Shown here: positions 36,545 to 39,573 of the stretch, in pieces | Layout: every line of letters begins with the position of its first letter | Numbering within the stretch: position 1 is the first letter of the stretch | Assembly: GCA_963612845.1 (NCBI GenBank) | Contig: CAVDWO010000002.1 | Coordinates: 15,335 to 79,334 of the forward strand | Length of the DNA stretch: 64,000 nucleotides | Direction of reading: 5' to 3' | Origin: Alistipes onderdonkii | GTDB taxonomy: Bacteria; Bacillota; Clostridia; Oscillospirales; Oscillospiraceae | Translations under genes and position numbers: made by a program | The notes under the pieces: generated by a model | What the model was told of the DNA's origin: nothing | Databases searched by the model: none | The model's input: the letters and a program-made list of their open reading frames with translations, nothing else

Positions 36545-36573
36545 TTGACAAGCGGGAGCGATGGTGCTACCAT
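36545..36573 (+). promoter_or_regulatory. SigA promoter of met leader/metQNI
   Basis: TTGACA-17-TACCAT with extended TG. Confidence 0.8.
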
Positions 36574-36626
36574 ACGCACAGCGCGGGAGCCGTGAGCGCC
36601 CGCAGCTGAGTTTCAGAAAGGAAACA

Positions 36627-36743
36627 ATGGGCATGAAGAACTTCGCCGTCAACTCCATGATGATGTCCGAGATGCGCATGATGTCTGTCATGTGCATGCT
36701 TCGCCATGGAGAAAACGGTCATTTCCTTTCAGAAACTGTCTGA
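36627..36743 (+). CDS. Met-rich leader peptide (38 aa, 10 Met), putative attenuator peptide
   Basis: SD GAAAGGA; MGMKNFAVNSMMMSEMRMMSVMCMLRHGENGHFLSETV; upstream of methionine transporter and a terminator. Confidence 0.85.
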   Translation: MGMKNFAVNSMMMSEMRMMSVMCMLRHGENGHFLSETV

Positions 36744-36761
36744 TATACCGGCGCACGAACG

Positions 36762-36800
36762 ACAGCGGAAGGTCAATGACCTCCCGCTGTTTTTTATTTT
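36762..36800 (+). terminator. Attenuator terminator in metQ leader
   Basis: ACAGCGGAAGGTC-AAT-GACCTCCCGCTGT then TTTTTATTTT; competing antiterminator strand at 36717-36740. Confidence 0.9.
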
Positions 36801-36952
36801 CCGATGTGAAAGGAGCAGATACCATGCGCAGCTTTCAACTGTACAGGGACGACCGAATGTGTCCGCAGGACACTGCGGGATAGGAATAAGAATGCAGCAT
36901 CATCGCTGAGCGATCCAAATAAATAAAATCATTTCATAAGGAGAACAAAACA

Positions 36953-37849
36953 ATGAAGAAGAATTCTGTCAAGCTCACCGCGCTCGTACTGGCGCTCGTG
37001 CTCACCGCCGCGCTCGCCCTGACCGGCTGCGGCTCTAAGGATACCGCCGCTGACGACTCCGGCGACAGCGCCCCCGTCATTCAGATCGCCGTCCCCAACG
37101 ACACCACCAACGAAGCGCGCGCGCTGCTGCTGCTTGAAGCCAACGGCATCATCAAGCTCAAGGACGGCGCTGGCATCACCGCCACCAAGAACGACATCGC
37201 CGAGAATCCGTACAACGTTGAGATCGTTGAGACCGAAGCCGCGGCGATCCCCAACGTCCTGCAGGACGTTGACTATGCCGTCATCAACTCCAACTACGCC
37301 ATCAACGCGGGGCTGAACCCTGTCGAGGATTCGCTCGCCATCGAAGGCTCCTCCTCGGCTTACGCCAATATCCTTGCCGTCAAGGAGGGCAACGAGACCT
37401 CCCCCAAGACGCTCGCGCTGATCGCAGCGCTTGAGAGCCAGCAGGTCGCCGACTTCATCGAAGAGAAGTATGCTGGCGCCGTTGTGAGCACCGTGGAGAA
37501 CCCGACCGACGGCTACGACGCCACCGTTGACTACGCCGCGCTCGCCGGCGAGACCATCTCCGTCGCCGCGTCCCCGACGCCGCACGCCGAGATCCTTGAG
37601 GTCGCCAAGGAGCTCCTCGCCGCCAAGGACATCACCCTTGATATCCAGACCTACAACGACTACGTCGTGCCCAACACCGTGGTCGAGGACGGCACCGCGG
37701 ACGCCAACTACTTCCAGCACACCCCGTACCTTGACGACTTCAACGCCGAAAAGGGCACGCACATCGTCTCCGTCGCCGCGATCCACGTTGAACCCATGGG
37801 TCTCTACGGCGGCAAGCAGACCACGCTCGACGCGCTGAGCGCGCAGTAA
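36953..37849 (+). CDS. metQ: Methionine ABC transporter lipoprotein MetQ/NlpA, circularly permuted
   Basis: Lipobox LTGC; IAVPNDTTNEARAL, AVINSNYA, ASPTPHAEIL, DANYFQH, HVEPMGLY motifs in swapped order. Confidence 0.93.
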   Translation: MKKNSVKLTALVLALVLTAALALTGCGSKDTAADDSGDSAPVIQIAVPNDTTNEARALLLLEANGIIKLKDGAGITATKNDIAENPYNVEIVETEAAAIPNVLQDVDYAVINSNYAINAGLNPVEDSLAIEGSSSAYANILAVKEGNETSPKTLALIAALESQQVADFIEEKYAGAVVSTVENPTDGYDATVDYAALAGETISVAASPTPHAEILEVAKELLAAKDITLDIQTYNDYVVPNTVVEDGTADANYFQHTPYLDDFNAEKGTHIVSVAAIHVEPMGLYGGKQTTLDALSAQ

Positions 37850-37871: not shown

Positions 37872-38879
37872 TTGATCGAACTGAAGCACCTTTGCAAGAC
37901 CTTTGAGACCGCCGGCGGACGGGTAGACGCGCTCAAGGACGTCTCCCTCACCATACCGGACGGGGACGTTTACGGCATCATCGGCATGAGCGGCGCGGGC
38001 AAATCCACGCTTGTGCGCTGCATCAATATGCTCGAGCGCCCGACCTCCGGCGAGGTCATCGTGAACGGGCAGCGGCTCGACACGATGAGCGCCTCGCAGC
38101 TGCGCGCGGCGCGGCGCGAGATCACAATGATCTTCCAGCGCTTCAACCTGCTGATGCAGCGCAGCTGCCTCGACAACGTGTGCTTCCCGATGGAGCTGGC
38201 GGGCGTGAAAAAGAGTGAGGCGGTCAAGCGCGCGCAGGAGCTGCTCGAGACCGTGGGGCTGCCCGACAAGGCGAAGGCATATCCCGCGCAGCTCTCCGGC
38301 GGGCAGCAGCAGCGTGTCGCCATCGCCCGCGCGCTCGCAACGGAGCCAAAGGTGCTGCTGTGCGACGAGGCGACGAGCGCGCTCGATCCCAAGACGACGC
38401 GCCAGATCCTCGAACTGATCGGCGACATCAACAAGAAGCTCGGCATCACGGTCGTCATCATCACGCACCAGATGAGCGTCGTGCGCGAGGTTTGCAGCCA
38501 CGTCGCCATTCTTGACGACGGCGAGGTGGTCGAGGAGGGGCTCGTTTCCGCGGTATTCTCCGCGCCGAAGTCCGCCGCCGCGCGGCACCTTGTATTCCCC
38601 CGCGGCGCGGATATCGACGTGTCCGACCCGCAGCATGAGCGCCGCATCCGCCTGATCTTCCGCAGCGCGAAGACGACCTCCGTGCCCCTCGTGGCGCGCC
38701 TTGCCACGGAGGAGGGCGTGAACGCGAACGTCATTTCCGCCAACACGCAGAAGCTCTCCGAGGAGGTCTACGGCAGTATGCTGCTGGGCGTGCCCAACGC
38801 GCAGTTCGAGCGCGCGATGGCGTTCCTCAAGGGCATCGAAAATCTTCAGGTAGAGGAGGCGAGCGTCAATGTACAGTAA
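37872..38879 (+). CDS. metN: Methionine ABC transporter ATPase
   Basis: GMSGAGKST, IFQRFNLL, LCDEATSALDP, C-terminal NIL-like domain; TTG start. Confidence 0.95.
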   Translation: MIELKHLCKTFETAGGRVDALKDVSLTIPDGDVYGIIGMSGAGKSTLVRCINMLERPTSGEVIVNGQRLDTMSASQLRAARREITMIFQRFNLLMQRSCLDNVCFPMELAGVKKSEAVKRAQELLETVGLPDKAKAYPAQLSGGQQQRVAIARALATEPKVLLCDEATSALDPKTTRQILELIGDINKKLGITVVIITHQMSVVREVCSHVAILDDGEVVEEGLVSAVFSAPKSAAARHLVFPRGADIDVSDPQHERRIRLIFRSAKTTSVPLVARLATEEGVNANVISANTQKLSEEVYGSMLLGVPNAQFERAMAFLKGIENLQVEEASVNVQ

Positions 38880-39573
38880 GATGTTTTCGCCGGAGTCTGT
38901 TTCCCAGCTGGTCGTCCTTTTGCAGACGCAGTTCCCGCTGGCGATCTGGGAGACGTTTTACGTCACCGTGCTCTCCACGCTTTTGGCGGTGGTGCTCGGT
39001 CTGCCGCTCGGCGTATTGCTGGTGGCGGGGGAGAAGGACGGCGTGCTGCCGCTTCCCAAGGCGCTGATGAGTGTGCTGAACGTCATCATCAACCTGCTGC
39101 GCTCCGTCCCGTTCCTGATCCTGATGGTCATGGTCTTCCCGCTCTCACGCCTGATCATCGGCACGACCGTCGGCACGAAGGCGACGATCGTCCCGCTCGT
39201 CGTGGCGGCGTTCCCGTTCGTGGCGCGCCTTGTTGAGAGCAGCCTGCGCGAGGTCGACCCCAACATCATCGAAGCCGCGCAGAGCATGGGCGCGACGCCG
39301 CTTCAGATCGTCTGTAAGGTGATGATCCCCGAGAGCGTCCCCTCGCTTTTGCAGAACTTCACCATCGCGCTGACGACCATTCTCGGCTACTCCGCGATGA
39401 GCGGCGTTATCGGCGGCGGCGGACTCGGCAAGATCGCCATCGACTACGGCTACTACCGCTACAAATATCTGGTGATGTTCGCCGCGACGCTCCTGCTGGT
39501 CCTGCTCGTGCAGGGCTTCCAGTCGCTCGGCACCTACCTTTCCACAAAATGTGACAAGCGGCTCAAAAAATAA
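38869..39573 (+). CDS. metI: Methionine ABC transporter permease
   Basis: LRSVPFLIL, PFVARLVE, YSAMSG..GGGGLG. Confidence 0.95.
   Translation: MYSKMFSPESVSQLVVLLQTQFPLAIWETFYVTVLSTLLAVVLGLPLGVLLVAGEKDGVLPLPKALMSVLNVIINLLRSVPFLILMVMVFPLSRLIIGTTVGTKATIVPLVVAAFPFVARLVESSLREVDPNIIEAAQSMGATPLQIVCKVMIPESVPSLLQNFTIALTTILGYSAMSGVIGGGGLGKIAIDYGYYRYKYLVMFAATLLLVLLVQGFQSLGTYLSTKCDKRLKK

Follow-up and report, generated by a model that had tools for sequence, protein, structure and literature searches.

A candidate methionine-codon attenuator upstream of a metQNI-like operon in an Oscillospiraceae genome

The window analyzed here is a stretch of 64,000 nucleotides of an Oscillospiraceae genome. It contains a metQNI-like operon, and ahead of that operon lie a short ORF crowded with Met codons and an intrinsic terminator. 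The question is whether ribosomes reading this leader set the transcription of the operon in response to Met. The first-pass annotation had proposed a Met-tRNA-sensing attenuator of metQNI. The core of that proposal holds on conservation, gene context, co-variation, and geometry. Its two-state wiring is incomplete, with the leader's own ribosome-binding site (RBS) as a third partner. From these comparisons, Met-responsive, ribosome-mediated attenuation of metQNI appears highly probable. The best explanation overall, to which we give a probability of about 80%, is a ribosome-read transcription attenuator that would activate metQNI when the supply of elongator Met-tRNA runs low.

Leader layout and downstream genes

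The features of the locus are as follows. The RBS helix and mini-ORF 2 were absent from the first-pass description.

36545..36573, + strand: sigma-A-type promoter; TTGACA (36545-36550), 17 nt, TACCAT (36568-36573), extended -10 TG; kept in relatives
36609..36624, + strand: leader ribosome-binding region (segment 1); Shine-Dalgarno (SD) core 36618-36623; partner 36722-36737, 15 of 16 bp
36633..36743, + strand: leader ORF 1, probable extent; 36 codons, 9 Met (8 internal); other in-frame ATG at 36627
36657..36698, + strand: Met-codon cluster (sensing codons); 8 Met codons, ending AUG-UGC-AUG
36672..36697, + strand: local hairpin within the Met cluster; candidate pause signal
36717..36740, + strand: segment 2; antiterminator 5' strand and also RBS partner
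36761..36800, + strand: intrinsic terminator and U-tract; hairpin 36761-36791; its 5' arm, loop, and first 3'-arm bases pair with segment 2
36810..36883, + strand: mini-ORF 2; own SD 36810-36815; 19 codons from 36824; invariant CGA-AUG-UG at 36854-36861
36953..37849, + strand: metQ-like lipoprotein; MetQ/NlpA family, PF03180; below NCBIfam cut-offs
37872..38879, + strand: metN-like ABC ATPase; best family TIGR02314, under its cut-off
38869..39573, + strand: metI-like permease; best family PRK10782, slightly under its cut-off

The TTGACA-17-TACCAT promoter lies where it had been annotated and carries the extended -10 TG besides. Transcription would start near 36580. A small stable hairpin (36582-36603) stands at this inferred 5' end of the leader RNA. 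Its sequence differs in relatives, and a role in stabilising the 5' end is conceivable. Many metQ and metY leaders (L024-L028, L037, L045, L047-L049, L052, L201, L203, and L209) have a palindrome, CCTA-N9-TAGG, across the -35 box. This palindrome is not in the window's promoter. It occurs somewhere in 37 of 220 loci, a count taken without a chance control, and its position suggests a repressor site.

Leader ORF 1 had been annotated as 36627-36743 with 38 codons and 10 Met codons. The stop codon (36741-36743) stands. The start, length, and Met count do not, and translation probably begins at the second ATG, 36633. This start is preferred because it aligns with the starts of the homologues and lies 9 nt past the SD, which is the family mode. 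The spacing is 7 to 11 nt in nearly all family representatives, and 36627 lies only 3 nt past the SD. The annotated run of 8 clustered Met codons is found in full between 36657 and 36698. With 8 Met in 15 codons, leader ORF 1 is the densest Met ORF among the genome's 2203 short SD-led ORFs. Both entries with that density are this ORF, through its two ATGs, and the runner-up has 5. Given the genome's 2.5% Met, the binomial P for the leader is about 2e-6. No second Met-rich leader was found in this genome. Two other short ORFs, each with 4 Met codons in a stretch of 15 (G000:C5:24622-24506 and C23:8285-8178, both on the - strand) lie about 230 to 260 nt before long genes, one of which we take to be a glutamate dehydrogenase gene by resemblance. 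Both short ORFs fall inside the chance tail.

The terminator, annotated at 36762-36790 plus a U-tract, was recovered as a hairpin at 36761-36791 with a z of -4.25 against 200 shuffles. The 18-bp antiterminator was also reproduced, with its three helices as drawn (36717-36723 with 36775-36781, 36725-36730 with 36767-36772, and 36736-36740 with 36761-36765) and a duplex energy of -22.0 kcal/mol. Of the two conformers, then, the antiterminator duplex can form as described, but equilibrium folds favor the terminator. In the window alone, the antiterminator is unremarkable (z -1.59). Its support comes from family co-variation and not from the single-sequence z.

The leader matches neither the S-box (RF00162) nor the T-box (RF00230) covariance model. 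As had been expected, an Rfam scan gave nothing at gathering score in the window; the leader contained just a chance match with an E of 9.8. One S-box match elsewhere in the genome served as positive control, and the genome's nine T-box matches all lie outside the window. Judging by N-termini, the gene behind the S-box is probably MetK-like, and most of the nine T-boxes presumably precede aminoacyl-tRNA synthetase genes. Rfam returned tRNAs alone in 40 related loci, and 17 leader peptides gave 0 Pfam or NCBIfam families.

The product of 36953-37849 matches the MetQ/NlpA profile in two stretches whose order is swapped, with residues 44-179 corresponding to the profile's C-terminal half. Its predicted architecture is that of a circularly permuted MetQ/NlpA protein. 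In this 97%-complete genome, no MetA- or MetY-type match was found over cut-off; uptake is therefore probably its Met source.

Distribution of the leaders and their conserved pairings

The genus set consisted of the best 30 metQ loci drawn from 61 genomes, all of the same genus, and the presence of a leader was not a criterion. A Met-rich ORF and a terminator were present in 18 of the 30 loci. All 18 leaders contain the tripeptide MCM, and several of the terminators are unrelated in sequence. The other 12 loci lack leader 1: five have mini-ORF 2 alone, one is cut by a contig end, and six have neither.

A leader-only pattern was then run on 401 genomes of the order. It gave 23 rows, or 21 distinct places. 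Fifteen of these are in-frame leaders, all 15 before metQ, metN, or metY, and the other six are chance matches. The reversed pattern gave 1 match in the same search. With one genome per species, a search of all species gave at least 120 loci, 80 of them with flanks. Among the matches listed, 69 of these 80 have a Met-rich SD-led ORF, and the next gene in 63 of the 69 is metQ (23), metN (33), metY (5), a MetE-type synthase gene (1), or metA (1). Of the remaining six leaders among the matches listed, four stand before no such Met gene and two are cut off. The search pattern partly forces the Met and Cys content of the pattern-selected sets; gene context is unforced. Leader-bearing taxa include Oscillospiraceae, Faecalibacterium, Subdoligranulum, Dysosmobacter, Mogibacterium, Anaerovoracaceae, Pseudobutyrivibrio, and Lachnospiraceae. 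In a class-wide sample, 14 of 401 genomes matched, against 2 control matches, and leaders were present in six of the 16 loci inspected. Five of these six belong to the metY family by appearance. Occurrence outside the order is patchy. One leader from another Clostridia family (L174) is Met/Cys-rich and is followed by a terminator and a gene for a small membrane protein of unidentified family, which is a candidate Met-related transporter component.

The leaders encode 20 to 44 amino acids, and their C-termini are unconserved. The reading frame past the Met cluster is unconserved also, with a 1-nt deletion in L054 and L082. These properties bear on a reading in which the functional product is the leader peptide itself, as a Met/Cys-rich metal-binding micropeptide, or a trans-acting terminated RNA, and the terminator is just a gene end. 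Met/Cys-rich peptides can bind copper or silver, and the ORF does have its own promoter, SD, and terminator. Variable lengths and C-termini and frameshifts do not fit a conserved peptide, nor does the lack of any Pfam or NCBIfam match among the 17 peptides. The leaders also stand before five different Met genes, and no second promoter-like site was found between the terminator and metQ. We regard this reading as scarcely credible.

A further question is whether the leader senses Met alone. It might instead sense sulfur amino acids jointly, through Met-tRNA and Cys-tRNA, or a general slowing of translation. The median leader has 3 Cys, MCM occurs in 18 of 18 leaders that were not selected by pattern, and no residue separates two Mets more often than Cys (104 of about 253, with one MCM pattern-forced in most of 67 of the 73 representatives). 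The window's leader, however, has 1 Cys against 8 internal Met. In unselected cases, all 25 Cys residues that directly precede a Met are encoded by UGC, whereas other Cys codons are evenly split; in this genome's genes, the figure is 74 of 113. A C directly precedes AUG in 258 of 422 cases. These counts point to a nucleotide-level cause for MCM, either CAUG pairing or codon context. The UGC bias (25/25 versus 74/113) fits a selected CAUG-based hairpin and weakens the case for Cys sensing, which we consider improbable.

For structural analysis, 9 duplicates and 6 loci judged not genuine were removed from 135 leader-bearing loci, leaving 120. The six were L050, L067, L074, L107, L123, and L154. 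Five of them had no downstream Met gene and L154 was atypical, so this exclusion is partly selection on outcome. A terminator is present in 113 of the 120 leaders.

Per-locus tests of the antiterminator were weak. P was at most 0.05 in 18 of 73 clusters with shuffling and in 3 of 73 with a whole-terminator swap, and the swap suffers because the exchanged segments are unequal in length and have a pyrimidine tract in common. It was replaced by a permutation test on 73 cluster representatives with both segment sets held fixed. For the stretch downstream of the Met cluster, pairing with the terminator of the same locus (arm, loop, and first 3' bases) gave -17.5 kcal/mol, against -13.8 kcal/mol for permuted partners (z -11.2, 0 of 20000 permutations). 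Three control regions gave z values of -2.0, +1.0, and -0.7. The signal sits in the loop anchor (z -7.0); locus-specific pairing of the terminator 5' arm alone was absent among the 73 representatives (z -1.4).

An alignment of 35 sequences agrees. Here 89% of antiterminator cells are paired, with 18 two-sided changes, a number reached in 0 of 500 shuffles. Two-sided changes in the terminator likewise exceed all 500 shuffles. This alignment covers one broad subfamily without the window's clade, and its shuffle control ignores relatedness. Searched with no positional constraint, the pairing has its 5' edge 10 to 25 nt past the final Met codon in 48 of 73 representatives, where about 13% were expected. 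The alignment of upstream regions proposed earlier turned out in favor of the attenuator: Met-rich leader ORFs are conserved, and the antiterminator co-varies.

Whole-leader folding of the window gave a further helix, between the leader RBS and segment 2. It pairs 36609-36614 with 36732-36737 and 36616-36624 with 36722-36730. Across the 73 representatives, this pairing is locus specific (native -16.0, permuted -11.75, z -13.5), with control z values of -1.4, +2.3, and +1.1. In 66 of 73 representatives, the RBS partner and the antiterminator strand share 4 nt or more. The spacer between SD and start codon keeps the signal by itself (z -11.7). The signal also holds inside gene classes (z -6.9 for metN-first leaders and -10.0 for others) and among 57 leaders less than 55% identical (z -12.2). 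In one fixed register, 80% of cells are paired and 11 are two-sided, and part of the family is shifted by 2 nt. The helix is not universal. It is weak in L057, L060, L108, L150, and L168.

The classical 1:2 protector helix, in which the sensing codons pair with segment 2, was rejected as a conserved element. No locus-specific pairing of this kind was present among the 73 representatives (z +0.7), and the cluster hairpin in the window extends just to 36719. From these comparisons, the conserved switch is predicted to consist of RBS:2, 2:3, and 3:4 pairings, with the RBS helix filling the role of the 1:2 protector.

Co-variation also bears on whether the arrangement is a chance one or a fixed dampener, a leaky terminator with no conditional switch. 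The antiterminator z of just -1.59 in the window fits a dampener, as does the preference of equilibrium folds for the terminator. Three mutually exclusive helices nevertheless co-vary over 57 to 73 divergent leaders, and the Met run is the genome's extreme. We consider a dampener very unlikely.

Seven short leaders of 20 to 25 codons (L057, L077, L117, L127, L135, L139, and L150) have the antiterminator strand wholly past the stop codon. L057, L077, L117, and L127 are labelled Mogibacterium or Anaerovoracaceae. The RBS helix is weak in L057 and L150, the two short-leader representatives examined. Short leaders are possibly wired differently.

Models of the switch and known attenuators

The switch was modeled with a 30-nt footprint kept unpaired at each codon and the transcript folded to 6 nt before the U-tract. 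The model boundary varies with the assumed footprint size, and equilibrium folding ignores timing and ribosome bulk. With a single footprint, the terminator of the window formed at every cluster Met codon, with a termination probability (Pterm) of 0.99 in this equilibrium model. Antitermination (0.08-0.24) appeared solely with footprints at the start site, covering the RBS. Family means showed almost no switch either (0.43 at the last Met versus 0.51 downstream). With the RBS and cluster both blocked, mean Pterm for the family was 0.09 at the last Met and 0.6 to 0.65 five to eight codons on (n = 60 to 65 of 73). With the RBS blocked, Pterm in the window was 0.84 to 0.89 at the first Mets, then 0.3 to 0.6, 0.07 at the last Met, and 0.99 three codons on. 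In the model, then, one stalled ribosome switches the leader only when the RBS is also occupied. When a longer portion of the terminator is transcribed, the terminator always wins; the switch must therefore be kinetic and needs a pause. The Met cluster gives a weak sign of such a pause: in 64 of 73 representatives it folds somewhat more stably than its synonymous recodings (median z -1.3), with a P of 0.12 in the window. The model runs indicate what is possible, not actual events.

The proposed mechanism is as follows. When Met is plentiful, the ribosome would cross the AUG cluster and sit over segment 2 while the terminator emerges, and transcription would end near 36797. Behind the passing ribosome, segment 2 would shut onto the RBS, locking the off state and blocking re-loading. 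When Met is scarce, the ribosome would wait in the cluster. Segment 2 could then take the terminator arm and loop, and polymerase would read through. For this, a queued ribosome, or else a 30S subunit awaiting fMet-tRNA, would keep the RBS filled, or the RBS would be unable to reach across the stalled ribosome. A leader left untranslated would terminate by default. Met starvation could also slow initiation on the leader and so favor the RBS helix and termination, which is the wrong direction. The first-pass annotation had placed a ribosome at the stop codon over 36717-36740. Given the usual footprint size, such a ribosome would probably not cover 36717-36723.

A plain trp-like attenuator would be simpler. 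The stalled ribosome alone would free segment 2, since a 70S ribosome in practice keeps the RNA on its two sides from pairing. The RBS helix would merely stop re-translation of a released leader and set the untranslated default to termination. Segment 2 lies at the distance from the last Met codon that this reading predicts. The folding model also overstates pairing around the ribosome, which it treats as a flexible unpaired loop. Terminated trp leaders have a similar RBS-masking fold. The co-variation of the RBS helix, however, equals that of the antiterminator in strength. In many leaders, moreover, the stop codon lies 20 to 45 nt beyond segment 2. A terminating ribosome there cannot hold segment 2, and so a lock is needed. 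The plain trp-like arrangement is judged unlikely, and we lean slightly toward an RBS helix that takes part in the decision over one that tidies up afterwards.

The host bears on ribosome-timed attenuation as a whole. In this genome, taken without a control genome, 54 of 168 predicted gene-end terminators lie at most 12 nt from the stop codon. Stop-adjacent terminators are a signature of uncoupled "runaway transcription." The count suggests loose transcription-translation coupling in the host, which would make ribosome-timed attenuation harder. If true, sensing of RBS occupancy would suit loosely coupled bacteria, and it would suit Met, which is needed for both initiation and elongation. For Firmicutes, in which transcription may outrun translation, the RBS-capturing helix offers a concrete, mutable design for ribosome-timed attenuation that is testable with one 250-nt fragment.

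The leader resembles trpL, hisL, thrL, leuL, ilvL, and pheL of Escherichia coli, whose mechanism is summarized in the available text of bioRxiv 10.1101/834739 and PMC6123439. In those, a short ORF rich in cognate codons precedes competing antiterminator and terminator structures, and the antiterminator strand begins about one ribosome edge beyond the sensing codons. Here, sequence features give a short SD-led ORF in the operon's 5' leader, a codon run cognate to the downstream pathway, and a terminator between leader and first gene. The antiterminator is mutually exclusive with the terminator, co-varies, and begins just past the stalled-ribosome position. Unlike the trpL type, the leader here would sense through AUG codons, mainly targets a transporter, and occurs in a member of the Clostridia. 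The anti-antiterminator partner is the leader RBS and not the sensing-codon segment, and a second mini-ORF follows. We keep the leader apart from the trp/his/leu class because it has no co-varying codon-segment protector helix.

Firmicute leader peptides are described for Leu/Ile in the accessible text of PMC5794164 and PMC6123439, and His leaders are predicted in bacilli in that of Naville and Gautheret (2010; PMC2965389). The Staphylococcus aureus ilv-leu attenuator (Kaiser 2018; PMC5794164) and the bacilli His leaders share with our locus ribosome-mediated attenuation in place of a T-box. They sense Leu/Ile or His, and the leader here would sense Met. In the same accessible text, the S. aureus antiterminator ties up the U-tail without opening the hairpin; in our leader, it would instead take the arm and loop of the terminator. 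Mycobacterial poly-Cys sORFs (Canestrari; bioRxiv 10.1101/834739, available text) likewise have a run of sulfur-amino-acid codons and a stalling ribosome, but they are leaderless, read Cys rather than Met, and control translation. The predicted Rhodobacterales cysS uORFC-8-2 (Brewer 2021; PMC8632094) has a run of Cys codons rather than Met, and the word "methionine" has 0 occurrences in the available text of that paper. The parts of PMC545781 and PMC13689557 that were accessible held nothing relevant.

S-box and T-box control of met genes in Firmicutes has the same target genes and the same terminator/antiterminator output; the leader matches neither. The first-pass annotation knew of no characterized Met-codon attenuator, and a full-text literature search, which covered main text and few subscription papers, also found none. 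Predicted Met leaders could stand in the supplements of attenuator screens. If the reading is true, Met, the start codon's own amino acid, joins those read by leader-peptide attenuators. Met genes would then have a third route besides the S-box and T-box, in abundant gut and rumen Clostridia.

Mini-ORF 2

Mini-ORF 2 follows the terminator in 24 of 46 metQ leaders, 6 of 7 metY leaders, and 1 of 40 metN leaders, the last apparently spurious. At its conserved R-M site (once R-T), the Arg codon is CGA in 42 of 42 genuine cases. CGA accounts for 397 of 20675 Arg codons in this genome, and tRNA-Arg(UCG) was not found in its tRNA set, which is incomplete. In the full-length family (20 sequences), the ten residues ahead of the site (L-V-R-x-N-F-R-F-G) are kept and synonymous change is free. 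The copy in the window is shortened, and its peptide conservation is eroded. The CGA-AUG pair is fixed there at the nucleotide level. Among the other 19 CGAATGTG sites in this genome, 0 were mini-ORF-like.

The mini-ORF 2 pattern matched 31 of 301 genomes, with 0 control matches. Of 30 loci fetched, 27 have a metY or metQ match as the next gene, and just 5 have a Met-rich leader 1. In most, the mini-ORF stands alone behind promoter-like sequence, with the Arg at codon 17. A hold-out of the leader pairing on loci chosen by mini-ORF 2 came to n = 2 only. Because it is mostly found without leader 1, mini-ORF 2 appears from its distribution to be an independent module, mostly alone before metY or metQ and shortened in the window. 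As an element, it is small, widespread, and unannotated.

No convincing structural partner for mini-ORF 2 was found (z -2.7, -0.3, and -1.8). No terminator follows it, and it does not overlap the downstream RBS; the CGA lies 62 to 120 nt before the gene start. Rho-dependent action was set aside as unlikely here, with no Rho found in the 97%-complete genome. The most likely reading, which is tentative and has somewhat less than even odds, is a further sensor of Met/SAM that acts after transcription. With help from the nascent chain, ribosomes would pause at CGA-AUG and thereby change how stable the read-through mRNA is.

SpeFL, TnaC, and plant CGS1 MTO1 are further arrest-peptide uORFs akin to mini-ORF 2. 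If arrest at mini-ORF 2 is true, it would be a bacterial counterpart in logic of the plant CGS1 feedback. In its available text, the short uORF rbfL of S. aureus (PMC13009471) likewise combines a rare Arg codon with a nascent-chain segment that is conserved before a fixed site. Unlike rbfL and other rare-Arg or arrest-peptide uORFs so far as that text describes them, mini-ORF 2 has no downstream RBS overlap, terminator, clear co-varying structure, or family match.

A more ambitious reading, which we hold to be doubtful, joins both elements as tandem novel sensors. The attenuator would decide on its own RBS occupancy, in the form of a ribosome queue or a 30S subunit awaiting fMet-tRNA. Mini-ORF 2 would represent a class of Met/SAM arrest mini-genes of about 18 codons for metY and metQ mRNA. 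Their consensus would end L-V-R-x-N-F-R-F-G-R-M with the invariant CGA-AUG, and they would act without a terminator.

Six loci (L012-L017) have mini-ORF 2 without leader 1 upstream of metQ, with two CGA-AUG sites each. In L017, the metQ start occupies the place of the mini-ORF start in L012-L016. A TATAG-N7-CTATA-like palindrome lies ahead of the promoter in L012-L017 and presumably resembles the MET-box of the LysR-type MetR/MtaR. The end of the upstream gene in these loci appears LysR-like.
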